From positions 3,032,237 to 3,096,236 of the forward strand of contig OZ244623.1 of the NCBI GenBank assembly GCA_965218465.1: a stretch of 64,000 nucleotides of DNA, in the 5' to 3' direction. The notes below the pieces were generated by a model. The model was not told where the DNA came from and made no database searches. It saw only the letters and a program-made list of their open reading frames with translations. Shown one piece after another: positions 49,886 through 64,000 of the stretch (positions are counted from its first letter, which is position 1; every line of letters starts with the position of its first letter). Both the position numbers and the translations under genes were made by a program. This stretch comes from Acidobacteriota bacterium (lineage in GTDB: Bacteria; Acidobacteriota; UBA6911; RPQK01; G965218465).

Positions 49886-51066
49886 GGCTGCGTGTCCCGC
49901 AGTGAGTTGATAGGTCGATAACGCCCGTCTCGACCGATCACGGTCAGGAAAACGGCGTCCGATCCCTGGTTGTCTCCTTTGCCGTACTGGAGTCGGAACC
50001 CGTCGAGGTCGATTCCGTCGGTGTGGCGCAAGCGGTCTAGAAAGCAGGTTCGATCGACCTCCCTGCCACACTTTCTCAGGCCGGTAATAGCCAGTCGGCC
50101 AGCCAGATAGCCCTCAAAGGAGACAAAGCCGGGAACGGCGGCGGCAGCAAAGGCGGAAAGGGCGCGATGGTAGGCAGCCACGATGGGAAGAGACCTGTCG
50201 GTTGGGAAGGGTACCACCTGAGTGACGAAAACTCCGGCACCACGGGGACCGAGTTCCTTCGTCAAGGCATTGCTGCCCACGAAGGAAATATTCACGAATA
50301 CGGCATCCAATCCCATATACCGCGCCCAGGAAATGAACGCTGCCAGGGGCTGGTAAGCTCCGATAAGAATCACGGCTTTGGGGGCTCCCTGGTAGACGTC
50401 CAGCAGAGCCATCTTTACCGCCAGCGTATTGCGGGGATACAAGCCGATGGCCACCGGCGTCATCTTTCTCCGCTCCAGCGCGGCCCGTACTCCCCGATAG
50501 CCGGCACGACCGAAGGAATCGTCCTGGTACAACACGGCGATACGCTTGATGCCCAGGTCCTCGGTCAAACGAGCGACCATTTCCTCAGTCTCCTGGTTGT
50601 AGGAGGCTCGCAGGTTGATCACGTTTTGCCACTTGGCGTCGCGCAGGAAGGCGGCGCCGGTGAAGGGAGCGATGTAGGGAACATCCGCCGCTGCGGCGAT
50701 GGGAACAGTCGAGCGCGCAGTCGGCGTCCCGACGGCGCCGATAAGCGCGAAAACCTCTCGCTCCCGGATCAGAGTGGTAGTGTTGGCGATGGCGGCTTCC
50801 GGCTCGTAGGCATCATCCAGAGCTATCAACTCCAACCGCCGACCATGAACGCCGCCGGCCCGGTTGGCCTCATGGAAAGCAGCCTCGATCCCGAGCCGCA
50901 TGTTTCTGCCCAGTTCTTGGGCAGGACCGCTGAAGGCAGCCGACTGTCCGAAGAGTATGCGTCCCTGGGAGACGCCCGGTTGCTGCGCTGTCACCGGCGT
51001 CGCCGCCGACAGCCACACCCCCGCCAGAGACAGCAGAGTTGCCGGTAGATGAAAGATCCGGGTCAT
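49882..51066 (-). CDS. Periplasmic ligand-binding protein, LIV-binding (type I PBP) family
   Basis: ATG at 51066 (TAATG overlap), signal peptide, GQSAAFSGP, GGVHGR, DDAYEP, GAVGTPT, YQDDSFG. Confidence 0.88.
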   Translation of the reverse strand: MTRIFHLPATLLSLAGVWLSAATPVTAQQPGVSQGRILFGQSAAFSGPAQELGRNMRLGIEAAFHEANRAGGVHGRRLELIALDDAYEPEAAIANTTTLIREREVFALIGAVGTPTARSTVPIAAAADVPYIAPFTGAAFLRDAKWQNVINLRASYNQETEEMVARLTEDLGIKRIAVLYQDDSFGRAGYRGVRAALERRKMTPVAIGLYPRNTLAVKMALLDVYQGAPKAVILIGAYQPLAAFISWARYMGLDAVFVNISFVGSNALTKELGPRGAGVFVTQVVPFPTDRSLPIVAAYHRALSAFAAAAVPGFVSFEGYLAGRLAITGLRKCGREVDRTCFLDRLRHTDGIDLDGFRLQYGKGDNQGSDAVFLTVIGRDGRYRPINSLRDTQP

Positions 51067-51611
51067 TAGACTCGCCCCTTGACCAGGGTGAGATGGTTTC
51101 TGCCTCCCTCCCGCCGATAGTGCAACTCGTCCATCATGGTGCGCACCAGATGGACGCCCAGCCCCCCCACGGACCGCTCCTCCACCCCCGACTCCAGATC
51201 GGGCGGGGGCGCATCCCTGAGCGGATCGAAAGGCAGACCGTTGTCCACGATCTCGATGGTCAGCGCATCCGCTTCCGAGGTCAGCCTGATCTCGATCTGC
51301 TGCAGATTTGCGCTCTTGCCGTGGTTGATGACGTTCAGCCCCAACTCCTCCAGAACCAATTCCACCTGAAAGAGCAAGTCGGCAGGCCATTGCTGCGCCT
51401 CCCCGAATTCCTCCACCGCAGCGGTAATGGTCTCCAATTCCTCGACTCTCGGGTCGACCTTCAGGACCAGTTTTCCGCTCAATGATCCCTCTCGCTGCGA
51501 TAGAGTGTCATGCAGGTGATGTCGTCCGATTGCGGCGTCTCACCCACGAAGTCTCTCACCGCTTCGAAAACCGCCCGGTTGGCCTCCCGGGAGTCCTTGG
51601 GCGCAGACGCC
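51048..51611. repeat. Direct repeat copy A (at least 564 bp)
   Basis: Matches 63437-64000 at offset 12389; 5 substitutions found by eye. Confidence 0.93.
51066..51482 (-). CDS. RsbW/SpoIIAB-like anti-sigma factor kinase (copy 1)
   Basis: LVLEELGLNVINHG, DNGLPFDP, GGLGVHLV, NHLTL. Confidence 0.88.
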   Translation of the reverse strand: MSGKLVLKVDPRVEELETITAAVEEFGEAQQWPADLLFQVELVLEELGLNVINHGKSANLQQIEIRLTSEADALTIEIVDNGLPFDPLRDAPPPDLESGVEERSVGGLGVHLVRTMMDELHYRREGGRNHLTLVKGRV

Positions 51612-52648
51612 GCAAAAATCTCGTACAGGCGATGCGTCCCAAACTCCTCGCCCGAACTGTCCATGGCCTCGGTGACGCCGTCGGTGTAAAACACCACCGT
51701 GTCGCCAGGCGAGAGAACCACCGTGTTCTCTCGAAACTCAAGACCGGGCATCACTCCCAGGGCAATCCCCTCCGTCAGGGGAAGCAGGGCCGAACTCCCG
51801 TCGGCATGGACAACGAGCGGCGAATTGTGCCCACCGTTGGCATAGGTCAGCTCCCCCGTGACCGGATCGTACACCGCGTACAGGACGGTGACGAACATGG
51901 AGGCCTCGTTGTCCTCGTTCAGCAGATCATTGACCTCGCGCAGCACTTGGCCTGGATAGACACTGCCGATGGCCGCACCCTTGAGCAGAGTCCGGCTGGA
52001 CATCATGAACAGCGCCGCAGGCACCCCCTTGTCCGACACGTCCGCAATGGCCAGACCAATCCGGTCTCCGTCAAGATGAATGACATCGAAAAAATCACCA
52101 CCCACGTTGCGCGCCGCCTCCATGCTGGCAAACACCTGGTAGTCATCACTCTCGGGAAACCGGTTGGGAAGAATCGATTGCTGCATCTGGTTGGCTACAT
52201 TGAGCTCGTTCTGCAGCGCCACCAGCTTGTCGCGCGAGGCAAGCGCCTCTCGCCACTCCATCATGTGGCGCACCGTCCGCTCGATGGTGACTCGCAGATC
52301 CTTGAAATCCAGCGGCTTGGTGACGAAGTCAAACGCCCCCCGGTTCATCGCCGTGCGGATGTTCTTCATGTCGCCATAGGCCGAAATGATGACGGACCGA
52401 ATGTTGGGATCCACCTTGGGAATCTGCTGCAACAGCGTCAGACCATCCATCTGAGGCATGTTGATGTCCGACAGCACCATGTCAATGCTGTGGTCCTGAT
52501 TCAGCAGTTCCAGCGCCTCCACGCCATTGTGGGCAAACACGAACTCATAGCGGCCAGCTCGTATGGCTCGCCGCATGCGCTGCAGCATCAGCGGCTCGAG
52601 ATCAGTCTCGTCGTCCACCACCAGGATCTTGCACGGCTGCTGTGTCAT
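51479..52648 (-). CDS. Response regulator with REC and SpoIIE/PP2C phosphatase domains (RsbU/RsbP-like)
   Basis: ILVVDDE, SDINMP, VTKP; VGGDFFD, IADVSDKG, NGGH, YTDGVTEA, DDIT. Confidence 0.92.
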   Translation of the reverse strand: MTQQPCKILVVDDETDLEPLMLQRMRRAIRAGRYEFVFAHNGVEALELLNQDHSIDMVLSDINMPQMDGLTLLQQIPKVDPNIRSVIISAYGDMKNIRTAMNRGAFDFVTKPLDFKDLRVTIERTVRHMMEWREALASRDKLVALQNELNVANQMQQSILPNRFPESDDYQVFASMEAARNVGGDFFDVIHLDGDRIGLAIADVSDKGVPAALFMMSSRTLLKGAAIGSVYPGQVLREVNDLLNEDNEASMFVTVLYAVYDPVTGELTYANGGHNSPLVVHADGSSALLPLTEGIALGVMPGLEFRENTVVLSPGDTVVFYTDGVTEAMDSSGEEFGTHRLYEIFAASAPKDSREANRAVFEAVRDFVGETPQSDDITCMTLYRSERDH

Positions 52649-52809
52649 GTCCCGTCCCTCGCCAATTCCGCCTCTGCCTTCAAAGAGCCGTGGGCAAAGA
52701 TTGTCGCCCCGTCCCGGCTATCGGCGGCGTTCTCCGGTCACAAAATGCTCCCGCCTCAGCCGGACGTCTCTATGGTCTCGGCGCCAAGCGGAACCCTCAT
52801 TACGGGCTC

Positions 52810-53148
52810 TTAACCACCGTGTGCCACGAGTGCTTCGGACCGGGAGGCATAGGTCGGGATGATCTTGCTGAAGCCGCTGATCTCAAAGACCTCATTGATG
52901 GGATCCGAGAGCGAGCAGACCACGAATTTCCCGCCCCGCTGCTGGAGCCTCTTGGCAACCAGCAGAAAAACGCGAAGACCCGCGCTGCTGATGTAGGAAA
53001 GAGCCGCCAAATCCAGGATCAAGACGCGATCGTTGTCGCCGATTGCAGCTCGGAGCGCGTCATCGAACTCACGGGCATTGGCTCCATCAACACGACCCTC
53101 CGCCCTGGCGATCAAGGTGCTGCCTTCCCGCTCGCTATGAATCTCCAT
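52810..53148 (-). CDS. STAS-domain anti-anti-sigma factor (RsbV/SpoIIAA-like)
   Basis: GRVDGANA, LDLAALSYISSAGLRV (phospho-Ser motif), VFEISGF. Confidence 0.9.
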   Translation of the reverse strand: MEIHSEREGSTLIARAEGRVDGANAREFDDALRAAIGDNDRVLILDLAALSYISSAGLRVFLLVAKRLQQRGGKFVVCSLSDPINEVFEISGFSKIIPTYASRSEALVAHGG

Positions 53149-53364
53149 TGACCATCACTCCTCGATTACAGCCTGAACCTCAAGATTGTCGTTCACCGAA
53201 TATTACCACCGGCGAACTGACAAGCAAAATCGTTTGGCCCTAGACCTAGAACAAGTTGGCAGCCATCCTTTCAGGTCGCGGGGAAGACAGCCGTGACCCA
53301 GCTCACTACGGCCCTGTTCCGCTGAGACTGAAACGTTCCCACCACCGGCATGGATTCAGGTGAC

Positions 53365-53582
53365 CCTAGTCAGGTCTATTCTGACGTGGTCGTTAGCCAA
53401 GATGACGAGTCAGCGCATGATGGTGGTGAGGGTGACCTTGAGTCGTTTACCTTTTAGCACAAAGCTGGTGATACTCTCGGCTGAGGTTCAGGTCGCAGCA
53501 CCCATGACCGCCCCCTTTGTTCTTGCCACTCAAGTGCTGGTTCAGCACCATGGGGATCATGCTCGCCCCAAGGCGCAAGTCC
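53365..53582 (-). mobile_element. Degraded IS110-family transposase C-terminal remnant
   Basis: Across frameshifts and a stop: GLAP, SGKNK/GRSWV, CDLNLSREYHQLCAK/GKRLKVTLTTIMR*LVILAN, resembling the IS110 GLAP..SG..GK..KVALTA.MRKL...AN pattern. Confidence 0.6.
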
Positions 53583-53741
53583 TCGTCTACAAAATTGTCG
53601 TGGACTAGGTTGTTCGGCGGGCGTTCGCAAGTCTCCATCTTGAGGGCACGCCCGAACCGCTGCCGTCAAACAACCGGTGTTGCGTAGTTCCGAGCGACTG
53701 GACCGCTCATGCACCGTAACCGACGACTACCACCCGACTGG

Positions 53742-54992
53742 TTAGAAGTTGTAAATCAAGTTCAGCTCGATGAAGCTGTCGCCTCGGACCTCGTAGTCGA
53801 GAGCTGCCTTGTCGATACCGAGAAGACCGATGGCCTCCAGGCGCAGAGACCACTGGTCAGAAATGCGCCGGTTCAACTCGACAGTCAGTACACGTCCCGC
53901 ACTGTCCATGTCTTTCAGAATACTGGCGACGACTTCGGTGCTCTGGACATCGTTGAACGCAAAGCGTGTGCCGAGGAAGAAATCGTTCTGGAAGATATTG
54001 GTGGCATTTCTACCCCGTCCATCGTAGTTCCACTCACTGAGCAGGGTAAGATCGGCAGCCGAGCCCCCTAAGGAATAGAAAGTGTATTCACCGCCAATAG
54101 TGGAAGCCGCATAGTCCTCTTCTCTACCGAGACGGTTTCGAGCACCGGAACGGCGAATGGCCTCCAGCTTGAACAACCAGGAGCCGACCGTCAGCTGGGT
54201 ATCCAGCCCAAACTGGCGGATCTGCTCGTAATACGGAGTAAAAATCGGCGCGCCACTACCGTCCCTCCCCGGCAACAGAAAAGGATCCCGGCTGGTGCCA
54301 TCAAATACGCTCATCCCCACATCGAAGGGTCCGAAACTACGGCTGTAGCGAGCGGCGAGATCCAGATGCCACTGCTTGGCGTCGCTCTCATATGAGACCT
54401 GCTCGTTGTCCACGACGAGTGGAAAGCGCAGCCGGCCAAAGCGGCCCGGAAAGGTGCGGGCGCGATGGTAGGTCAGACCGAATATTTCTGCCACACCCCA
54501 ATCTCCGGACCAAGTGAGATGGGCCATGGGTTGGCCCAGCTTCGGCTCTTTGTAGGGGTGTTCCACCAAGTCGATCTGGTTGATGATATTGACGAGGTGG
54601 CGTGATTCGGTAACTCCCCAGAACACCTGGTCAACGCCAAGGCGCAGCTCCCATCCGCTATTGCCGATTTCACCGAATAGCAAGAGATAGGCTTCATGCA
54701 GATCGGCATGGGTGCGACGTGGGTCCGCGGCATCGTAGCGAAAGAACGGCGTCAGAGTGAAACTTCTACCCTCGGCATCTTCAAGATAGAGTTTGGGCGT
54801 TGCCACAAAACCGCTTGCATGCGAGCGCTGGCCGGAATGAGTGCCGGTTTGGGGATGCCACCGGCTTTCGATGCTCAAGCTCCCGGAAAACTCGTGTTTG
54901 ACGATCTCGGCGCGCACTCCGATGGGAAAGACCAAGACCAGAACCCAGGCAGCGCCGAGTGGAGCGCACTGAAGAGCAACACGCTGGAGCAT
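53742..54992 (-). CDS. Outer-membrane beta-barrel protein of the MMPL/LolA-like triad
   Basis: Signal peptide, amphipathic strands (VFWGVTES, IINQID, LGQPM, WLFKLEA), C-terminal YNF. Confidence 0.7.
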   Translation of the reverse strand: MLQRVALQCAPLGAAWVLVLVFPIGVRAEIVKHEFSGSLSIESRWHPQTGTHSGQRSHASGFVATPKLYLEDAEGRSFTLTPFFRYDAADPRRTHADLHEAYLLLFGEIGNSGWELRLGVDQVFWGVTESRHLVNIINQIDLVEHPYKEPKLGQPMAHLTWSGDWGVAEIFGLTYHRARTFPGRFGRLRFPLVVDNEQVSYESDAKQWHLDLAARYSRSFGPFDVGMSVFDGTSRDPFLLPGRDGSGAPIFTPYYEQIRQFGLDTQLTVGSWLFKLEAIRRSGARNRLGREEDYAASTIGGEYTFYSLGGSAADLTLLSEWNYDGRGRNATNIFQNDFFLGTRFAFNDVQSTEVVASILKDMDSAGRVLTVELNRRISDQWSLRLEAIGLLGIDKAALDYEVRGDSFIELNLIYNF

Positions 54993-55816
54993 CAACGAAC
55001 CCGTTGCAGCCCAGTGCGGGTGAAGTCGCGTTCGTTGAGCTTGGTTCGGAATTCATAATCCGTCCAGTTCAGCACGGTGCTCTTGCCAGTGAGATGATTC
55101 ACCATCGTCATCTCGCCGGCGTACCAGTAACGATCCAGATGTTGCTCGTAGCTCCCCAAGGTGAGAGTCTTCAGATGCGCATCCTTGCGGTCGTAATACT
55201 CCACTTTCCGGACCCGAAGCTCGTCCCGGTCGCGCCAGACCAGTTGGCGGCGGTAGCCCGATCTCTTATCCACCGGGACGCGTTCGGAGACCACGCATGT
55301 CAAATCGCCGCAAGGCTCGTCACGCAAGTATCGGTAACTGAATCTCTCTATCTCCTGGACAGTCATGTCCTCATAGGCAAATTCGCTGCCCATGAAGGAG
55401 CCGGACCGGTTCGACGAACTGATGCGCTTGACCCGTTTCAGAGCGGGCAAATAGAGCCATTGGTCGTCTGCAGCATCCTTGTGGGCATGGATAAGCAGCG
55501 CGGTTCCCTTGACGTCGCGCGGCTGATCGAACACGAACAGGCTCCTGTCACCGTCTCCGGTGACCTCGAGAACCATTACCCGCAGCTGCCGCCGGCTCTC
55601 CTGCCCCTGTTTGTTGCGCAGCACCATGGTCTGACGAGCCGTGAAATTGCCAAAACCCTGGCCGCGTTCGCGGGCTTCGCGCGCGATCTTCAATGCGGTT
55701 TCCTCAGTGTCAGTGCTTTGTGTCGGTTCGAGTGGCCCGGCACCAAGACAAGCCAAAGAGGCCAAATAAGGCACCATCAACAAGAGCGCCGATCGGACGA
55801 GATAAACGTGAATCAT
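54992..55816 (-). CDS. LolA-like outer-membrane lipoprotein-sorting protein
   Basis: ATG at 55816; PRDVKGTALL, DDQWLYLPALKRVKRI, FMGSEFAYED, YYDRK. Confidence 0.85.
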   Translation of the reverse strand: MIHVYLVRSALLLMVPYLASLACLGAGPLEPTQSTDTEETALKIAREARERGQGFGNFTARQTMVLRNKQGQESRRQLRVMVLEVTGDGDRSLFVFDQPRDVKGTALLIHAHKDAADDQWLYLPALKRVKRISSSNRSGSFMGSEFAYEDMTVQEIERFSYRYLRDEPCGDLTCVVSERVPVDKRSGYRRQLVWRDRDELRVRKVEYYDRKDAHLKTLTLGSYEQHLDRYWYAGEMTMVNHLTGKSTVLNWTDYEFRTKLNERDFTRTGLQRVR

Positions 55817-58104
55817 GAGGTCCTCCGGTCGATGGCCATCAGCAGAGTCGGAAGAAGAAGAAAATCGGCTAGGAGTGCAAAGATGAGCGTGGTCGCGACC
55901 AGAAGGCCGAGCGCCCAGCTGACCTCGAATCCCGATGCAGCGAATACCAGGAAGCCCCCCGACAAGACAACGGTTGTGGTCCATAACGCCTGACCTACAG
56001 TGCAAAAGGCGGCGCGCACGGACTCAGGCGCCGGGAGGCCCTCGCGGCGGGCCTTCAGGTATTTGCTCAGAAAATGAATCGTATCGTCCACGATAATCCC
56101 GAAGGCGACGACGGTGACTACCGAGGAAGCAATACCCACGCGGCCGACCAGATAGCCCCACAGACCGAAGCTCATGGCTGCGGGGATAAAATTGGGCAAA
56201 AGACTGATGAGGCCAAGGCGCACGCTTTTGAAAACCACGATTAGGATTAACGAAATGAGAGCCATGGCGATGATCGTGCCGCGCAGCATGCTGTCGATGT
56301 TTCGTTTGGAAATGTGAGCAAAGATCATACTGATGCCCGATGCCGCGGTCGCCAAGTCGGGCGCATTGGCGAGGAGCCAAGCCTGTGCGCGCGCATCAAG
56401 CTCGCGCTGTTCCCGAGCTGACGAACTGCGGACTACGGCGGTCATGCGCGTAGCCGACTTGGCAACGTCAATGCGGTCGTTGAGATCACTGCCGAATGGA
56501 AGCGAAAGCTCGTAGAGCAACAGATACTGCGCAGCCAGCTCCGGATCGTCAGGCAACCGATAGAAGCTCGGGTCATCACCGTGCATGTTCTTGTTCAGAC
56601 GTTTCATGACATCCGGAAAGGCTTGCACGTGGGTCACTTCGGGCTGCTCCCGGTACCATTCGGCGAAACTATCGACTGCTCGCAGATAATCGGGATTGGT
56701 GATGCTGCCTTCGCTCCCCGCTTTCAGCGAGTATTCCAGCGTATTCAAGCCGGTCAGGTTTTGGAGAACAAAGTCCGTATGGCGCCGGAACTGGTAACGC
56801 TCATCGAAATACCGCGTCCAGTTGTCACTCAGCTCATTGCGGGGAATGCCCATGATCAGCGCGCCTGCCACAAGGACGACAAACCAAAGTAGGATTGTCC
56901 GTCGTGAGATGACGAAGGTAGCGAAACGGTCGAAGAAGACAGGCCGTCCAGCGCGGACAGGACGAGCACGCAAGGGCAGGAACGAAAGCAACGCCGGCAG
57001 GAGAGTCATGGAATAGACAAAGGCGCATGTCACTCCAAATGCCACCAGATTGCCCAGGACGTGAAAAGGTGGCGAATCCGAGGCATTCAGGCTGAGAAAC
57101 CCGATCGCAGTCGTGACCGTGGTGAGAAACATCGGATAGGCATTGTGGCGAAGCGACTCCGCAATCGCCGTATTCCTGCCTAGGCCACGGCCCATACCCA
57201 ATAAGACAGCCGAGACGATGTGGACTGAATGCGCAACGGCAACCGCCATGACGATGAGTGGTACGCCGGCATTGGTGGGGCTGAACACCGTGCGGATCCA
57301 GCCGGCGAACCCCATAGTGGTGTTGACCACGAACACGAGCACGATAACGATGGACAGGGTGCCCAATACCGAGCGTAGGAGAAAGGCCGTGGCAGCGACG
57401 ATGATGACAAACATGATCGGTGCCAGGGTCCGAATATCGTCCTGGGTGGCGTCGGCAAAGGCACGGTTCATGACAACATCGCCGGTCAGGTAAAAGTCGA
57501 TGTCCGGATGGCGCGCGTGGGTCTCATCCAGGAGCGCGTTGAGATAATCGGTAATCTCAACCACCGCGGCGTCTAGATTTTCGGGCAGGACGAAATTAAT
57601 CGCCAACCCGCCTACGCGTCCGTCACGGGAGACCATACGCCCGGCAATTTCGATTGCGTTCAGTGCGATCCTCTCGATTCGCTCCAGATTGGCATCGCTC
57701 AGCGACTGCGCGTCTTCGACCAGCGGTTCGACGATCAAATCGTCCCCCAACGCCTCGCTATGGGAATAGTTGGTGAGGGAATCGACTCGACTTGAATAAG
57801 GCGCGCGCCACGCGGCTTCGGTCAGCTCCTCAATGGTGCCAAGCGTCTCGCGGGTAAACACCGAACCCTCTCGGGGCGCGATGGCAATCAGTGCTGTATC
57901 GGATGCGGAGTAGGTGTTCTCCAAGGAGTCGAAAGCGGCAAGTTGCGGATTGTCTTCTCCGAACATAACACGGTAATCGTTGGTGACGGCGACGAAGCGG
58001 GCGCCCGCCGTCATGACCAGCATCAGGAGTAGGGCCAGCACGGCAACCAGCCAGCGACGGCGCAGAATGGTGGCGACGTAGCGGTCCAATACCACAGGCC
58101 TCAT
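55813..58104 (-). CDS. MMPL/RND-family transporter
   Basis: Two repeats of TM, large loop and TM cluster; TTVTTAIGFLSL, LLPALL, GIIVDDTIHF. Confidence 0.9.
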   Translation of the reverse strand: MRPVVLDRYVATILRRRWLVAVLALLLMLVMTAGARFVAVTNDYRVMFGEDNPQLAAFDSLENTYSASDTALIAIAPREGSVFTRETLGTIEELTEAAWRAPYSSRVDSLTNYSHSEALGDDLIVEPLVEDAQSLSDANLERIERIALNAIEIAGRMVSRDGRVGGLAINFVLPENLDAAVVEITDYLNALLDETHARHPDIDFYLTGDVVMNRAFADATQDDIRTLAPIMFVIIVAATAFLLRSVLGTLSIVIVLVFVVNTTMGFAGWIRTVFSPTNAGVPLIVMAVAVAHSVHIVSAVLLGMGRGLGRNTAIAESLRHNAYPMFLTTVTTAIGFLSLNASDSPPFHVLGNLVAFGVTCAFVYSMTLLPALLSFLPLRARPVRAGRPVFFDRFATFVISRRTILLWFVVLVAGALIMGIPRNELSDNWTRYFDERYQFRRHTDFVLQNLTGLNTLEYSLKAGSEGSITNPDYLRAVDSFAEWYREQPEVTHVQAFPDVMKRLNKNMHGDDPSFYRLPDDPELAAQYLLLYELSLPFGSDLNDRIDVAKSATRMTAVVRSSSAREQRELDARAQAWLLANAPDLATAASGISMIFAHISKRNIDSMLRGTIIAMALISLILIVVFKSVRLGLISLLPNFIPAAMSFGLWGYLVGRVGIASSVVTVVAFGIIVDDTIHFLSKYLKARREGLPAPESVRAAFCTVGQALWTTTVVLSGGFLVFAASGFEVSWALGLLVATTLIFALLADFLLLPTLLMAIDRRTS

Positions 58105-58281
58105 GACCTCGACCTTTCCAGGCTGGGAGCAGCGACTAAATCGTCAACTCGATTGCGCGGCGCTATCGACACGGCCAACTACAGATAACTTCGTTCCATC
58201 TGCCGGCCGAATCTCTGCTTCCTGTGACCAGACCGAAACCGTTATCGTACAGAGTCGGTTGCAGCGCAGCCACAAGCATCG

Positions 58282-59436
58282 TCACCATTTGATTGATTTT
58301 GATGTGTGGACGTGATCGGGCATCTTGTAACTCAGTCCGTGGTCGTCGTATACCGAAATCTGGAGAAGCTGAGAGAAGTTATCCGATCTGAGGATCTGTT
58401 TGTCCGTGAGCATGCGCTGCAAGCGTTGTTTCATCCGGTAAAACCACAGTGTGCCTAATGTGGAGGTCTTTGGAAACTGGAACTGGTCGGCAAGTCGGTT
58501 TCCTATGAGTGCTCGTGAAAGGCGGTAGGCTAGATCTGTCAGTTTTTTCTGCTCAACTGGATCCTCTATATCCGCAACTGTCGGAATGGCATTTATCAAC
58601 ATATTGGCCACGCCTATCGAATCGGCGTCCGGCGGCGGCTCGCACATATAGCCGATCCTGTACATCTCTTCCGCCTCTTGGCTGGTGGTATAGAGGATGG
58701 TCTCAGGAATCCCCATGAGATAGCCAGCGTAGCGCCAAACCTTGACAACACTCTCTTGTTCTTCCTTGTTGAGGTTTGCGCCCACCCGCAACGAGTATTC
58801 CACCAAGCGCTTGGAAAAGACGGAGATGGCGAACCCCAGGTGTGCCGCGCTTACCGGCATGCCCCAAGTTTCGTGATCCCAATCGTCGGATTTCGCCAGC
58901 AGGTTTCTTATTCGAGTATGAACGAAGCGTATTCGTGTGGATAGCTTCCATCCGTCGCCGTTTCTTTGCAGGCCGCCGGGAAAAAAGATATCCATCATGT
59001 GGCGGTTATTCTGTTGCAGGCGCCTTTTGGTCGACGCCACCCGCCCGGTAATATTGAAAGACTTGGCAATAAGCGTCGAGAAGCCTTCCACCAGCACCCC
59101 CGTAACAAATGCGACGAGCATGAGGTTTACGTTTGCGTGGAAGGCGCGAATCCCCGGACGAAAGTCTTCGTAGTCGAGCCAGGGAGGTTCTTCGAGACTT
59201 TCGAAGAAATCGCGCAGGGCCTGTGGCGCATTACACAGAACCTCATCGCGCCCCTCTATGCCAGCCCCGATGAACCGGTGCAGTTCTTGAGGAGGAAAAG
59301 AGGAGAGTTCCTCCATCACCGGGTCCAGCATGGGATCGCCAATGGTGGTATGTTTGATGTAGTTGTCGGCCATTGCCTGGTCGTAGAGACGGGCCTTCGC
59401 TTGACCCTCAACGTACGCCGATGGGACTTGTTTCAT
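58282..59436 (-). CDS. Lcp/MpaB-family (DUF2236) heme oxygenase-like protein, no signal peptide
   Basis: GDP..D, PPWLD, RFVHTRIR (putative heme-ligand His), WGMPVS, WRYAGYLMGI; ATG at 59436. Confidence 0.75.
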   Translation of the reverse strand: MKQVPSAYVEGQAKARLYDQAMADNYIKHTTIGDPMLDPVMEELSSFPPQELHRFIGAGIEGRDEVLCNAPQALRDFFESLEEPPWLDYEDFRPGIRAFHANVNLMLVAFVTGVLVEGFSTLIAKSFNITGRVASTKRRLQQNNRHMMDIFFPGGLQRNGDGWKLSTRIRFVHTRIRNLLAKSDDWDHETWGMPVSAAHLGFAISVFSKRLVEYSLRVGANLNKEEQESVVKVWRYAGYLMGIPETILYTTSQEAEEMYRIGYMCEPPPDADSIGVANMLINAIPTVADIEDPVEQKKLTDLAYRLSRALIGNRLADQFQFPKTSTLGTLWFYRMKQRLQRMLTDKQILRSDNFSQLLQISVYDDHGLSYKMPDHVHTSKSIKW

Positions 59437-59926
59437 CCTTCGATCTCCTTGCAGTCTTATCAACGAATTCCCCGAAGAAACAAGTAGAGAGTGCCAGTCA
59501 CAAACTTGATCGGGAGTAATGGTTTCCCGAACTGTCCTGGGCTAATTTCCTTAGCCTCCGCGACCGGTTTACAGTGTCAGCAACCACCGCATAGAGCCTG
59601 AACCCAAGCGCCCGTTGCGCATGTCGGAGACATACTCCAACTCGTCGCTTGGCAGCTAGACAAATCGATGCTATCACGACCACAACCGTATTCGTCAACC
59701 TTGTATTATCACGCTTGAGAGCGGTGTGGTCGCGTTTGCCCCCATTCTGGCGGCAATTCGTCCCCAAGTTTTGGTTCTTCATAATAAGCAAAGTCCCCAA
59801 CCAGAGCATCTTCTTACCAAGGGCTGACTTCGGTCTCCCTATCCTGCTTCATGTTCAACCGGTGTGCCCGGACTCGCCATTTCCAGGCGCCGAGTCCTGT
59901 TCCACCCATGGCTTCGTTTTGCCCGC

Positions 59927-61186
59927 TTACGGTCTATCACCGGCAACGGCGCGGGCGGCCATGTGACCGGAACGAACGGCACTTTCGATGGTGGCGGGCA
60001 GACCTGTATCGATCCAATCCCCTGCCAAATAGAGGTTGGAGAACTTGCTTCGGGTTCGCGGACGGCGCCGGACTTGCTCAGGCGTTTGTGCGAACGTGGC
60101 GCGTTTTTCCTTGACGATGCGATGCGCCGGTAACGTGTCCCGCTTGCGATCAAGTGCCTTGGCGACATCGTTCCAGGTCTTGCGGGCAATCGTGCCGGCC
60201 GGCTCCTCCGCGAGTGCATCGCCCGCGCTTACCGTTATCGATGCAATGTCACCACGAACAAACAGCCACTGGGCTGTCCCCCCTATCAGTCCAAGAATAG
60301 GCAGTTCCGCCGGTAGATCAGCGGGGGCGGACAAACGGAAATGAACGTTTACGATGGCATGGCTTAGTGCCGGAACGGTCAGCGCCGGCACTAAGCCAGC
60401 CGCAACCGGCGGGGGCACCGCCAGCACAACGCTCTCGCCATCTTGCAATTCGATCGTTTCGGCGCCGAAGTCCAGACCGCGCGCACGGCGGCCGCTGTAG
60501 TTGATCCGGCGCAACCGGCGTCCAAACCGAATGGGAGCGCCTTGTTGATTCAAGAACTCCACGGCCGGATCCACGAAGGCGCGGGAAAGGCCTTTTTTGG
60601 CGATTCGTGGCCGGCAGGCTGCCTCTCCTTTAGCGAACGTCTCACGTACTACGGACCACAACAGACGGGCTGCACCGGCTCGAGCCGGCGTGTTCAATGC
60701 CCCGACGGCGAGAGGTTGCCAGAATCTCTCGAACAAAATAGTGCTGTCGGCGACGCAATCGGTCACAGTGCAATCGGCGCCGGCCACGGCCAATCGCAGC
60801 GCCGACAAATAGTTCCAAACTTTGGTCCCGGGCACGCGCCGCTTGGCGTCGAGGATCCACCAGGGCACCCTTCCGGCATTGGGTCGCAAGAGCCATCGCT
60901 GACCGGTGCGAAGATCAAGGAACGGAAAGCAGGCCGAAACCGGGCCGATCAATGCTTCCGTGGCTTCGATCTCCTCCAGATAGCGCATTGCAGCCTTGTT
61001 GCCGCTCAGTAGCAGATGGTTGCCGTTGTCGACCACACAATCGAGCTTGGCATCGAGGTAGGACCGGCAACGGCCGCCGGCCTGACCGCGCGCTTCGTAG
61101 AGGGTGACAGCCCGCCCCTCTCGCACTAACGATACTGCAGTGGCAAGACCCGCCAAGCCGGCGCCGATGATGTGAACTCGGGGCAC
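59927..61186 (-). CDS. hpnE: Hydroxysqualene dehydroxylase
   Basis: GAGLAGL, GGRCRSY, DNGNHLLLSGN, VKEKRATF, LAGDW.DTGLPATIESAV; follows hpnD. Confidence 0.92.
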   Translation of the reverse strand: MPRVHIIGAGLAGLATAVSLVREGRAVTLYEARGQAGGRCRSYLDAKLDCVVDNGNHLLLSGNKAAMRYLEEIEATEALIGPVSACFPFLDLRTGQRWLLRPNAGRVPWWILDAKRRVPGTKVWNYLSALRLAVAGADCTVTDCVADSTILFERFWQPLAVGALNTPARAGAARLLWSVVRETFAKGEAACRPRIAKKGLSRAFVDPAVEFLNQQGAPIRFGRRLRRINYSGRRARGLDFGAETIELQDGESVVLAVPPPVAAGLVPALTVPALSHAIVNVHFRLSAPADLPAELPILGLIGGTAQWLFVRGDIASITVSAGDALAEEPAGTIARKTWNDVAKALDRKRDTLPAHRIVKEKRATFAQTPEQVRRRPRTRSKFSNLYLAGDWIDTGLPATIESAVRSGHMAARAVAGDRP

Positions 61187-61198
61187 GAAAAAAGTCCG

Positions 61199-62092
61199 TC
61201 AGAGAAATCCGTAACGCAAGGCGAGCAACATCTTTCGCATAGGCGTCAGCCTAACCGAAACATCTATTCGCTTCCAACCCCGTTCTTGCAGGCGCTCCAG
61301 CATCTCTCGATAAACCGCCATCATAAGGGCGGCAGGCCGCATTTTCCGCCATCCGAGTCCCGCCAACAATTCGTCGGCTTTGGTGTAGTAGCTCTGCGCA
61401 AGGTCGGCCAGTTCCGAACAAGTTTCGGCAAAGCCCGGATGATTGAAAACTGCGTTCAATGAATTCGCGATGACACCATGTTTGCCGAGCATTTCCAAAG
61501 GCAAATAGAGGCGCTGCAACGCCGCATCTTCTTTCAAGTCGCGCAGGATGTTGGTTAATTGCAGGGCATTTCCGAGCGTCTCGGCAATTTGCGGTCCAGG
61601 GTGCCGGGGCACGCCAAAGGCGTGGATCGACAGCATGCCAACCGCGCCGGCGACCTTGCGACAATAGTTCAACAAGTCGTCCAGCTTCTGCATCCGTACC
61701 GTTGGGGCCGCGTCGATTTCCACACCGTCGATCACGGCCAGGAATTCCTCCCGCGGCAAGTTGAAGCTTTGCACCGATTTCAGCAGCGCCTTTGTCGTAG
61801 GCCATTTCGGCTGTTTGGCATAAAGCCGGGCAATCTCTTCACGCCAAGCCGCCAGCGCTCGCCTCTTGTCTGCCACTTGGCCCGGCTCGTCGGCAATGTC
61901 GTCAACCTCGCGGCAAAACGCATAAATGGCGTGCATTGCGCGCCGCCGTTCGGTCGGTAATAGCTTCAAACCCCAAAGAAACGAGGTGCCCGATTGTGCA
62001 ACGACGCGATTCACGTGAGCCCATGGCTCGATCTGGGCAGGGGTCGACTTGCTTGGGGTGAGGGTAGCCAGGGAATGATGCGCCGAACTCAC
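61199..62092 (-). CDS. hpnD: Presqualene diphosphate synthase
   Basis: SGTSF, IYAFCREVDDIAD, YCRKVAGAVG, ALQLTNILRDLKEDA, RLYLP. Confidence 0.9.
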   Translation of the reverse strand: MSSAHHSLATLTPSKSTPAQIEPWAHVNRVVAQSGTSFLWGLKLLPTERRRAMHAIYAFCREVDDIADEPGQVADKRRALAAWREEIARLYAKQPKWPTTKALLKSVQSFNLPREEFLAVIDGVEIDAAPTVRMQKLDDLLNYCRKVAGAVGMLSIHAFGVPRHPGPQIAETLGNALQLTNILRDLKEDAALQRLYLPLEMLGKHGVIANSLNAVFNHPGFAETCSELADLAQSYYTKADELLAGLGWRKMRPAALMMAVYREMLERLQERGWKRIDVSVRLTPMRKMLLALRYGFL

Positions 62093-62367
62093 GTCGTTAG
62101 AACCCCCAATACTTGCGTCGGAATCAGTCCGCCGACTTGATACCTGTGTAAGAGCGAATCCAACCAGACAAATATAGAGCAGATTTTACTCTATCTGCAA
62201 ATCGGCCCCGACGAGGCTGCGGCAGTCGCTTCCCGCCGCTCGAAACCGCTCTCGATTAGAGGCGGGCTTGTCCCAATAGGAAACAGGCCGTGCAGGTGGT
62301 CAACAATTAGGTCCGGGCGAGGCCCCGCAGGGACCGGCGATCAAGGCGACAAATGACGACCGGCGCA

Positions 62368-63267
62368 CTACTTGAGGTTTGAGGGAAGCGTTTCCGCCGG
62401 ATGACCCCGGCGCAAGGCTCTTCGGAACATGACTTTCCCAATGCCGTGGGCACAGCTTCCCGCCAACTGCGCTTTCGTCAGCACCACACGTTCCGCCAAG
62501 GGGTCCCGCCGACGCAATTCAGCACTGAGTTTCCTGGCGATGGTGACGATTACGGAAGTTTCCATGGCAAAGCGGAAGTTGCGAAACTGGTCCGGCAAAG
62601 GATCGGCCAATGTCAGCAAGTCATCGGTTGCATCGAGACACAGGTCCAGCACTTGGCGCAGGGCTGTTGTCGACCGTTTGTTACTGAGCACCTCGACACC
62701 GATGCCCGCTTCCCTCATCCAGTTCCGCGGCAGGTAGACTCGATTCAGCCTCTCGTAATCATCCTGGCAGTCCTGCAGGTGGTTGAGCACTTGCAGCCCG
62801 TTGCAAAGGGCGTCGCAAGCCGGATATGTTGTCGCCGACTCGCCATGCAGGTCGACCAGGTAGCGGCCTACAGGTGCCGCCGAGAGATTGCAATAGCCGA
62901 TCAGATCGTCCCAATCGTCATAGCGCAGTTTGGTCGCATCCAGTTTGAAGGCGCGTGTCAGATCAATGCAATGCCGATGCGTCACCCCTGTGGCAGCCAA
63001 GCTGCGACGGATCGCGTGCGCTTTGCGGAAGGCCGGATCGGTTGCCTCGACACCCCTCACCGCTTTGGCGAAGCCGTCCAGGCGTTCGATCTTGTCGGCG
63101 GGCTCCAAGTTGGGGTTGTCAGCAATGTCATCGATCGCCCGCGCGTAGGCATAAAAGGTTGCGATATGCGGTCGCAGATGGGCGGGCAGCAGCCGGGACC
63201 CGACGGGAAAATTCTCATCTGTTGCGACCTTGCCGGATGGTGTCTCGATCGAAGCAGCCTTGTCCAT
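62368..63267 (-). CDS. hpnC: Hydroxysqualene synthase
   Basis: ENFPVGS, YARAIDDIAD, YCNLSAAPVGR, DALC..LQVLNHLQD, RVYLP. Confidence 0.92.
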   Translation of the reverse strand: MDKAASIETPSGKVATDENFPVGSRLLPAHLRPHIATFYAYARAIDDIADNPNLEPADKIERLDGFAKAVRGVEATDPAFRKAHAIRRSLAATGVTHRHCIDLTRAFKLDATKLRYDDWDDLIGYCNLSAAPVGRYLVDLHGESATTYPACDALCNGLQVLNHLQDCQDDYERLNRVYLPRNWMREAGIGVEVLSNKRSTTALRQVLDLCLDATDDLLTLADPLPDQFRNFRFAMETSVIVTIARKLSAELRRRDPLAERVVLTKAQLAGSCAHGIGKVMFRRALRRGHPAETLPSNLK

Positions 63268-63361
63268 GGCAAATCTATGGGCGAAGGGAACCTGTCGTTG
63301 GCGTGTCTAACCTCAAGGTTATCGCGAAAGCGCCGGCACCTGCTACATGCCGGGTCACCGC

Positions 63362-63455
63362 ATCACGGTTTTGGGAACCGCCTGGTACGGGTCCAGCAGA
63401 GCCATCTTACCGCCGGCTTATTGCGGGGATATGGCCGATGAAAGATCCGGGTCAT
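63362..63455 (-). pseudogene. Remnant of a second LIV-type binding-protein gene with a ~600-bp internal deletion
   Basis: Start MTRIFH as in the 51066 copy, joined at GATG to sequence homologous to 50369-50449. Confidence 0.7.
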
Positions 63456-63871
63456 TAGACTCGCCCCTTGACCAGGGTGAGATGGTTTCTGCCTCCCTCC
63501 CGCCGATAGTGCAACTCGTCCATCATAGTGCGCACCAGATGGACGCCCAGCCCCCCCACGGATCGCTCCTCCACCCCCGACTCCAGATCGGGCGGGGGCG
63601 CATCCCTGAGCGGATCGAAAGGCAGACCGTTGTCCACGATCTCGATGGTCAGCGCATCCGCTTTCGAGGTCAGCCTGATCTCGATCTGCTGCAGATTTTC
63701 GCTCTTGCCGTGGTTGATGACGTTCAGCCCCAACTCCTCCAGAACCAATTCCACCTGAAAGAGCAAGTCGGCAGGCCATTGCTGCGCCTCCCCGAATTCC
63801 TCCACCGCAGCGGTAATGGTCTCCAATTCCTCGACTCTCGGGTCGACCTTCAGGACCAGTTTTCCGCTCAA
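63455..63871 (-). CDS. RsbW-like anti-sigma factor kinase (copy 2)
   Basis: 138 aa, differs from copy 1 at two residues (A/E and E/K). Confidence 0.88.
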   Translation of the reverse strand: MSGKLVLKVDPRVEELETITAAVEEFGEAQQWPADLLFQVELVLEELGLNVINHGKSENLQQIEIRLTSKADALTIEIVDNGLPFDPLRDAPPPDLESGVEERSVGGLGVHLVRTMMDELHYRREGGRNHLTLVKGRV

Positions 63872-64000
63872 TGATCCCTCTCGCTGCGATAGAGTGTCAT
63901 GCAGGTGATGTCGTCCGATTGCGGCGTCTCACCCACGAAGTCTCTCACCGCCTCGAAAACCGCCCGGTTGGCCTCCCGGGAGTCCTTGGGCGCAGACGCC
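63868..64000 (-). CDS. 3' end of a second REC-PP2C phosphatase gene (runs off the right edge)
   Basis: Near-identical to 51479-51611 (QSDDITCMTLYRSERDH). Confidence 0.85.
   Translation of the reverse strand, partial: ASAPKDSREANRAVFEAVRDFVGETPQSDDITCMTLYRSERDH

Follow-up and report, generated by a model that had tools for sequence, protein, structure and literature searches.

We propose that seven genes in a 64,000-nucleotide stretch of an Acidobacteriota genome (GenBank assembly GCA_965218465.1, contig OZ244623.1, positions 3,032,237 to 3,096,236; hereafter the window) form one horizontally acquired island, which would make squalene and then process it without cyclisation, through oxidation and export steps. 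We give this reading a probability of about 0.55. The island joins the three genes of the HpnCDE route to squalene with a four-gene cassette encoding an oxygenase of the MpaB/Lcp family, an RND inner-membrane transporter, a LolA-like protein and an outer-membrane beta-barrel. The reading of the locus as an acyclic squalene-processing system is, as a whole, supported by the genomic comparisons presented below. The genome is a closed single contig of 3.42 Mb, 97.7% complete, and all seven genes lie on its minus strand:

62368-63267, minus strand: hpnC, the hydroxysqualene synthase step of the three-enzyme squalene route (TIGR03464 259.9 bits, cut-off 250.45; PF00494 173 bits).
61199-62092, minus strand: hpnD, presqualene diphosphate synthase (TIGR03465 305.3 bits, cut-off 278.6).
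59927-61186, minus strand: hpnE, FAD-dependent hydroxysqualene dehydroxylase (TIGR03467 400.2 bits, cut-off 283.05).
59437-59926, minus strand: intergenic gap of 490 bp upstream of the oxygenase gene, from the coordinates.
58282-59436, minus strand: predicted cytoplasmic haem oxygenase of the MpaB/Lcp family, 384 amino acids (PF09995 MPAB_Lcp_cat 73.9 bits, cut-off 23).
55813-58104, minus strand: MMPL/HAE3-like RND inner-membrane transporter, 763 amino acids (PF03176 MMPL 109 bits, over cut-off).
54992-55816, minus strand: LolA-like periplasmic lipid carrier or plug with a signal peptide (PF17131 198 bits).
53742-54995, minus strand: outer-membrane beta-barrel, DUF1302-like, 417 amino acids, with a signal peptide and a C-terminal YNF (PF06980 DUF1302 29.2 bits, cut-off 23.2, a weak match).

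These coordinates and profile scores confirm a first-pass annotation of this DNA, which had described hpnC, hpnD, hpnE, oxygenase, MMPL, LolA-like and outer-membrane barrel genes here in one orientation. It had also estimated gaps of about 490 and 180 bp around the oxygenase gene, which measure 490 bp (from the oxygenase start common to homologues) and 177 bp. The other spacings are 275 bp between hpnC and hpnD and 12 bp between hpnD and hpnE, while stop and start codons overlap at the RND/LolA-like (ATGA) and LolA-like/barrel (TGATG) junctions, so that these last three genes are translationally coupled. HpnC, HpnD and HpnE all exceed the curated NCBIfam equivalog cut-offs in the profile search. 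Their translations hold the motifs DDIAD and RDLKED (HpnD), DDIAD and QDCQDD (HpnC) and an N-terminal IGAGLAG (HpnE); we take such Asp-rich motifs, and the N-terminal GxGxxG dinucleotide fold of HpnE, to be hallmarks of these families.

The locus shares with hopanoid loci (HpnCDE, Shc, HpnN) the HpnCDE enzymes, a setting with ispH and dxs nearby, and an RND lipid transporter, but differs in that the genome has no shc and that an oxygenase and two outer-membrane partners stand in the cyclase's place. Neither shc nor hpn tailoring genes were found among the genes flanking the cluster (response regulator, binding protein, histidine kinase), in line with the absence first noted for the neighbourhood, and this absence of a cyclase extends to the whole genome, with no match to the hopene cyclase model TIGR01507 at E<=0.001 or to the cyclase C-terminal domain PF13243 at E<=1. 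The known fates of squalene in bacteria, as given in PMC9907078, are hopanoids, sterols and C30 carotenoids. The C30-carotenoid route (HpnCDE with CrtN/CrtP; PMC9907078) is likewise a non-cyclising fate of HpnCDE-made squalene, although the partner enzyme in the window is a haem oxygenase and not an amine-oxidase-type desaturase. It was rejected for this genome, where no crtI/crtN-family protein scores above 106.9 bits, the cut-off being 238.1. With no cyclase and no crtI-family desaturase over cut-off, squalene is therefore left without any other known fate in this organism.

The seven genes are also set apart physically. A blastn comparison of the genome region against itself revealed direct repeats of 2187 bp with 98.2% identity (window 51048-53234 versus 63437-65621), and the 10,202 bp between them (53235-63436) hold exactly hpnC through the barrel gene:

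51048-53234, no strand assigned: direct repeat copy A, with the response-regulator gene (51479-52648) intact and a binding-protein gene represented by its first 114 codons.
63437-64000, continuing to about 65621 past the window end, no strand assigned: direct repeat copy B, with a second response-regulator copy and a truncated binding-protein gene fragment.

Both repeats comprise the response-regulator/SpoIIE gene with the 586 bp upstream of it, together with 114 codons from the 5' end of the binding-protein gene, and the copy beside hpnC terminates in a truncated gene remnant. By tblastn, the response-regulator copy of copy B shows 98.5% identity and its periplasmic-binding-protein fragment 90.6% over 127 amino acids. 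This pattern fits the single-crossover integration of a circular DNA carrying a homologous segment, or a local duplication; with either origin, hpnCDE and the cassette would have arrived or moved together.

The island interrupts a regulator module (response regulator/SpoIIE phosphatase, periplasmic binding protein and HAMP histidine kinase; 47672-52648). The same three-gene module, at 37-60% identity, adjoins the cassette in Nitrospirota and Thiotrichales loci (L014, L028, L036, L045), where it is convergent with the cassette, while in the window the two are co-oriented; it may be a travelling regulator. Just past the outer repeat there is a type III restriction-modification-like set of ResIII helicase/endonuclease and N6_N4 methylase genes, 7-16 kb past the window end in the same genome (L067 4702-14242).

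The proximity of the oxygenase and exporter genes to hpnCDE, described at first from this locus alone, recurs elsewhere. In a scan of one genome per species, with loci fetched with 10-kb flanks, the oxygenase was found at 50-89% identity in 47 loci of 46 genomes, spanning about ten phyla. Within 10 kb of these oxygenase genes, hpnCDE was present in seven loci, a Sqs-type synthase in place of hpnCDE in six further ones (best model TIGR01559, 111 bits, below cut-off), ispH in 14 and dxs in nine. At least one of hpnCDE, sqs, ispH and dxs was found in 18/47 loci, in varying arrangements and under six or more phylum labels. In the Acidobacteriota genomes G134 and G182, of the same order, hpnE lies directly upstream of the oxygenase gene as it does in the window; the gaps there measure 430 and 341 bp. 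Binatia-type loci run dxs, oxygenase, RND, LolA-like and barrel, followed by a convergent ispH-hpnE-hpnD-hpnC and no shc. In Vicinamibacterales and Thiotrichales loci, ispH and sqs lie just downstream, and one Dehalococcoidia locus holds dxs, oxygenase and ispH only. A paralogue of the oxygenase, 37-41% identical, stands beside a SQS_PSY-type gene in six genomes of one genus (g137). A classical hopanoid locus, as seen in the alphaproteobacterial metagenome-assembled genome (MAG) G001, holds hpnE, shc, ispH and dxs within 11 kb; in the Binatia-type loci, the shc site of this dxs/ispH/hpnEDC frame is occupied by the four-gene cassette. The HpnE of the window is itself nearest, at 69-71% identity, to the cassette-linked HpnE of Binatia-type MAGs rather than to that of its Acidobacteriota relatives.

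Because related loci repeat the arrangement, the clustering of hpnCDE with the cassette exceeds chance. Two unrelated units lying side by side by accident would accord with the 490-bp gap between hpnE and the oxygenase gene and with the 29/47 loci that have no isoprenoid gene within 10 kb, but this explanation is disfavoured, and we consider it highly improbable, given that one repeat pair brackets all seven genes, that the adjacency recurs in at least four arrangements with two different squalene routes, that a 58-residue hpnE remnant, 89% identical to the HpnE of the window, lies upstream of ispH and of the cassette with its oxygenase gene in one locus (L002), and that a 20-kb locus makes up about 0.5% of a 4-Mb genome.

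Some further observations concern the isoprenoid genes and the spacers of these loci. In G001 (C2:952799-954022 and C3:1277009-1287691), the native hpnE-shc-ispH-dxs locus has its ispH broken in two, and an intact ispH with an hpnE remnant is found upstream of the imported cassette, as if the island copy had replaced the native ispH. The idea that the linked dxs and ispH genes are flux-boosting extra copies was rejected: the linked dxs is the sole dxs in G007, G024 and G045, and the linked ispH is the sole ispH over cut-off in the same three genomes, with a second ispH over cut-off in G008. In the closed genome of the window, DXS itself stays below cut-off (best 60.8 bits versus 465.95), while Dxr (457.7 bits) and IspH are present; the Vicinamibacterales MAG G008 likewise has no DXS at E<=1e-60. 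A remnant of ispH or dxs in the gaps of the window cluster was considered and rejected (best match E 0.066). An Rfam scan of 51000-64000 gave a single chance-level match only and none in the 490-bp gap, and a promoter and terminator scan found no more sites than in shuffled sequence. The intergenic DNA of the cluster is not conserved in other loci, except that L010 and L006 share part of the gap between the oxygenase and RND genes.

The link between the oxygenase and squalene synthesis also holds when whole genomes are considered. HpnE over cut-off was found in 18/46 oxygenase genomes and a Sqs-type synthase at E<=1e-40 in 28/46, which gives a squalene route (HpnE or Sqs-type) in 45/46, one genome having both and only G046 neither; those reached through loci were counted at whatever completeness they have, and related genomes among the 46 are not independent counts. 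In an Acidobacteriota control, a squalene route was present in 21/22 oxygenase carriers versus 1/20 non-carriers (10/11 versus 1/12 by genus), the negatives being 20 listed genomes of the same order without an oxygenase match, with the other 358 negatives outside the comparison. The cyclase gene shc was found over cut-off in 10/46 oxygenase genomes and 2/18 HpnE carriers, and was absent by that measure in 36/46. The conserved core of the system is the oxygenase with a squalene synthase, since the transporter is absent from some carriers.

Two observations were made on the synthase and cyclase matches. Four genomes (G015, G016, G018 and G020; three Longimicrobiales and one gammaproteobacterial) have strong Sqs-type matches each with one in-frame TGA. 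Five others (G026, G030, G034, G036, G043) hold full-length, sub-cut-off hopene-cyclase-like matches of 258-276 bits in frames of about 1150-1206 amino acids, which may be fused or divergent cyclase-like proteins.

The start of the oxygenase agrees with that of homologues of 383-387 amino acids. As the first-pass annotation had stated, it has no signal peptide: the N-terminus (MKQVPSAYVEG...) lacks a hydrophobic or twin-arginine leader, and the homologues start at the same point. The AlphaFold2 model is all-helical, with a mean predicted local distance difference test (pLDDT) score of 81.2. Its sole confident PDB matches in Foldseek were the rubber oxygenase LcpK30 at the top (5o1l/5o1m, E 9e-7, template modelling (TM) score 0.64-0.68), and then t-anethole oxygenase (8s1j, TM 0.46-0.57), which also cleaves a C=C bond. 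Residue equivalences were taken from a phmmer alignment to Lcp and from an alignment of 29 sequences, with the roles as described in PMC5522427 and PMC6311187:

His173, invariant in the 29 sequences: LcpK30 His198, proximal haem ligand (PMC5522427, PMC6311187).
Arg170, invariant: LcpK30 Arg195, described as important for the structure of Lcp.
Arg177, invariant: LcpK30 Arg202, described as important for the structure of Lcp.
Arg139, at least 90% conserved, with the neighbouring Arg138 invariant: LcpK30 Arg164, described as essential for Lcp activity.
Gln142: LcpK30 Lys167, described as the distal ligand in Lcp (59% of Lcps); differs.
Asn143: LcpK30 Thr168, present in 99.6% of Lcps as reported; differs.
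Ser126: LcpK30 Glu148, the proposed base in Lcp; in a weakly aligned stretch.

Haem binding is likely. LcpK30 (PDB 5O1L/5O1M), a haem b enzyme, shares with the oxygenase the family PF09995 (DUF2236) and a 3/3-globin-type fold, the best structural match, the proximal His and three Arg, and its own substrate is an isoprenoid chain cleaved at C=C; Lcp is described as a catabolic enzyme that cleaves the C=C bonds of polyisoprene (PMC6311187). On the other hand, identity to LcpK30 is 16-17%, Lcp is secreted whereas the window oxygenase has no Tat or Sec signal and is cytoplasmic, Lys167, Thr168 and Glu148 are missing, there is an extra conserved C-terminal tail (residues 345-384), and the gene context of Lcp is rubber catabolism whereas here it is squalene synthesis. 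Given the lack of an export signal, the differing active-site residues and the conserved tail of its own, the oxygenase represents a distinct cytoplasmic clade of the MpaB/Lcp superfamily and is not an Lcp. The tail of 40 residues (window 58282-58401) is modelled as disordered, with pLDDT below 50, and holds Asp364, Tyr370, Met372, Pro373 and His375, which are invariant across the 29 sequences, including those from genomes without the transporter; it may be a distal haem ligand or a lid.

The closest functional analogy is MpaB/MpaB' of mycophenolic acid biosynthesis, described as a globin-like oxygenase that cleaves a prenyl side chain (PMC6900556; bioRxiv 10.1101/524025). As these sources describe it, it belongs to the same Pfam family, is intracellular, and acts on a farnesyl-derived chain within a biosynthetic pathway. 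It differs in being fungal and bound to the endoplasmic reticulum, with a meroterpenoid and not a free triterpene as substrate, the comparison being one of descriptions and not of sequences.

Turning to the transporter, the RND protein is not HpnN by its profile scores (TIGR03480 83.8 bits versus a cut-off of 751.85; NF052374 26.5 versus 1100); its best NCBIfam model is TIGR00921 HAE3, at 148.3 bits and below the cut-off of 351.9. Elsewhere in the genome (C1:755657-757768) there is another MMPL/RND paralogue, with 48% identity to that of the island, while the LolA-like and barrel genes have no homologue beyond the island by tblastn. In the PDB, the LolA-like protein matches a structural-genomics entry, 3bk5 (E 7e-82). 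For the barrel, a PDB sequence search gave no match; its AlphaFold2 model is all-beta with about 20 strands (pLDDT 73) and had 224 Foldseek matches at E<=0.001, of which the 50 listed were all outer-membrane barrels (OprB, porins, AlgE), and its C-terminal YNF is invariant in 19 sequences. A complex prediction for the mature barrel and the mature LolA-like protein, with custom alignments as input, scored 0.83, compared with 0.01 for the best of three controls, the mark for this score being one reached by 116/157 solved complexes and 2/215 mismatched pairs. The runs had at least 92% of contacts in common and a partner pLDDT of at least 84, and the modelled contacts circle the whole barrel rim and involve invariant loop residues 126-140 of the LolA-like protein. 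The model suggests that the two proteins form a plug-in-barrel outer-membrane unit, an arrangement that we take to resemble LptD/LptE.

The closest studied system is AmeABCD of Castellaniella defragrans, which consists of a HAE3 pump, a DUF1302 outer-membrane protein, a DUF1329/LolA-superfamily protein and a COG4447 protein, and is described as effluxing terpenes and as needed for monoterpene tolerance (PMC6394551). Both systems encode an RND pump, a LolA-superfamily protein and a DUF1302 outer-membrane protein together, and the Castellaniella system, as described, has a terpene link. The window system differs in lacking the BNR/COG4447 (AmeC) gene, there being no further open reading frame within its overlapping RND-LolA-barrel genes and no such family recurring in the 47 loci. 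Besides, its barrel is shorter (417 amino acids versus 605 for AmeA), the gene order is reversed, its LolA-like protein fits PF17131 better than DUF1329 (198 versus 37.5 bits), and the transporter is coupled to an oxygenase and to squalene synthesis.

A different division of labour may be considered, in which the transporter carries squalene or another envelope lipid to the outer membrane, as HpnN does with hopanoids, and the oxygenase stands outside the pathway as a globin for turnover, damage control or O2/redox sensing, by which the pool is trimmed or sensed. Lcp has a 3/3 globin fold akin to that of globin-coupled sensors (PMC5522427), and the DUF1302, DUF1329, BNR and COG1033 families, which cofit in several bacteria, have been proposed to export a cell-wall component (bioRxiv 10.1101/072470); the oxygenase and transporter are moreover separable across loci and genomes, with a 177-bp gap between them in the window. 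It is the oxygenase, and not the transporter, that tracks squalene synthesis (45/46 genomes), also where the LolA-like gene is missing, it directly adjoins synthase genes in G134, G182 and g137, and its solved relatives with a stated activity are alkene-cleaving enzymes, and we consider this alternative unlikely.

Our preferred reading further holds that the island was acquired horizontally. The nearest relatives of the RpoB of this genome are Vicinamibacterales, at 71-72% identity, which places it in the Acidobacteriota. The oxygenase is 89% identical to that of a Latescibacterota MAG, while the RpoB of that MAG is only 60% identical. Over 45 genomes, oxygenase and RpoB identities are uncorrelated (Spearman 0.09, p 0.54), the oxygenase identity being the higher of the two in 38/45. 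As oxygenase identity does not track RpoB identity, horizontal transfer of the oxygenase is indicated. The carriers are labelled Latescibacterota, Binatia, Thermodesulfobacteriota, 'Deltaproteobacteria', Vicinamibacterales, Holophagales, Ca. Multivorans, Longimicrobiales, Ca. Palauibacter, Nitrospirales, Alpha- and Gammaproteobacteria (including Arenicellales and Thiotrichales) and Dehalococcoidia. In a quick maximum-likelihood tree, Acidobacteriota sequences fell in three separate places and Gemmatimonadota in two, with Vicinamibacterales and Longimicrobiales intermixed on a short, unresolved backbone. Within the Acidobacteriota the distribution is patchy, with the oxygenase in 22/400 other genomes sampled and in 12/227 genera including that of the window. 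Transposase genes (DDE_3 and Mutator families) occur in several loci. Searched by tblastn, the 47 loci hold all four cassette genes in 27 cases, the oxygenase and RND only in four, remnants or no pump in four, and the oxygenase alone in 12. As judged from sequence comparison, hpnCDE and the cassette would form a horizontally acquired unit, and the module has spread horizontally across phyla.

DNA near-identical to the window was present in at least 20 runs from 11 studies, two of these runs being RNA libraries labelled sponge metagenome. The contigs from these RNA libraries are 158-458 nt long, of low depth, identical to the window on hpnD, hpnE and the 3' part of the RND gene, and may derive from DNA. 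One of them spans the hpnD/hpnE junction (61064-61231) and another the beginning of the RND gene and 146 nt of the gap before it (58044-58250); among these short, low-depth contigs, none joins hpnE to the oxygenase gene or the oxygenase gene to RND. Two other runs showed a summed contig depth for the oxygenase, RND and LolA-like genes of roughly 3 to 50 times the hpnCDE depth, varying from bin to bin, with many variants 90-95% alike. The higher cassette depth and the many variants fit carriage of the cassette by many organisms of the same communities.

Sponges are a habitat rich in terpenoids. This raises the question of whether the cassette is a tolerance or catabolic device against foreign isoprenoids (host or dietary squalene, carotenoids, polyprenols or terpenoid toxins), which the oxygenase would degrade and the RND pump expel, the link with hpnCDE being regulatory or accidental. 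The near-identical DNA in sponge-metagenome-labelled libraries, the mobility of the module, the monoterpene tolerance that AmeABCD is reported to confer (PMC6394551) and the catabolic role described for Lcp (PMC6311187) would all agree with it. Such a device is nevertheless quite unlikely in our view: the enzyme lacks an export signal, unlike Lcp, its recurrent neighbours are biosynthetic (dxs, ispH, hpnCDE, sqs) with no recurrent beta-oxidation or catabolic genes, and an endogenous squalene route accompanies it in 45/46 genomes, with 21/22 versus 1/20 in the control.

Overall, we favour the acyclic route, for which we propose the following scheme. HpnD, HpnC and HpnE would convert farnesyl diphosphate to squalene, as their family assignments over curated cut-offs predict. 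In the simplest reading, the oxygenase would then be an alternative consumer of squalene, in shc's place of the locus frame. As a cytoplasmic haem b enzyme it would oxidise squalene at a C=C bond, and by analogy with Lcp, MpaB' and t-anethole oxygenase the likeliest reaction would be cleavage to aldehyde and ketone fragments. The hydrophobic product would leave the inner membrane via the HAE3-like RND pump and pass to the outer-membrane complex, with the LolA-like protein in the DUF1302-like barrel, as family behaviour and the complex model suggest, and would end in the outer membrane or outside the cell. From these comparisons we infer on which substrate the oxygenase acts, by what cleavage and to which product, as well as what the transporter carries and in which direction.

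A separate observation concerns a large subunit of the molybdopterin aldehyde oxidase/xanthine dehydrogenase family, which is encoded within 10 kb of the oxygenase gene in 8/47 loci (L008, L012, L015, L020, L026, L035, L039, L041) and directly after RND in L020, L035 and L039. It could oxidise an aldehyde product.

Several points weigh against the proposed scheme. The reaction of this oxygenase clade is inferred by analogy, and the replacement of Thr168 by Asn143 and Lys167 by Gln142, together with the uncertain equivalence of Glu148 and Ser126, means that it may differ from that of Lcp. No transporter gene lies within 10 kb in 12/47 loci, and the LolA-like gene was missing at E<=1e-10 from 4/5 oxygenase genomes checked, namely two of Dehalococcoidia and two of Holophagales type, the former group having a single membrane. 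Since the oxygenase is found without the transporter, export by the cassette is not obligatory, and the outward direction of RND transport is assumed from how the family behaves. The linked dxs and ispH are mostly housekeeping copies and not extras marking a dedicated pathway. Of the oxygenase carriers, 10/46 also have shc. Six of the 28 Sqs-type matches are weak (E 1e-42 to 1e-54), two of these being partial, and the best Sqs-type match of five other genomes carries an in-frame stop; the completeness and relatedness of the genomes, given with the counts above, belong here too.

We also entertain, more tentatively, a wider joint reading, namely that the horizontally exchanged module makes new acyclic nor- or apo-triterpenoid lipids (aldehydes, ketones or acids, so far undescribed) from squalene and is common in marine host-associated bacteria of about ten phyla, and that the dedicated RND-plug-barrel system installs or releases them, as a hopanoid substitute of the outer membrane that needs no cyclase, or directed at the host. 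This joint reading is possible, and we hold it with less than even confidence.

In the literature searched, which included few subscription journals, we found no paper that connects this oxygenase family with squalene synthesis or with the transporter. The 36/46 genomes, from many phyla, that have an apparent squalene route and no cyclase share a common haem oxygenase, often together with an envelope lipid transporter. The module has spread among unrelated members of the same communities, which suggests a benefit in their habitat. If the oxygenase does act on squalene, this would add a fourth fate of squalene in bacteria, besides hopanoids, sterols and C30 carotenoids. For a large clade of the MpaB/Lcp family that is so far uncharacterised, it would also supply a first substrate, and for a widespread type of RND/LolA-like/DUF1302 transporter a first candidate cargo.

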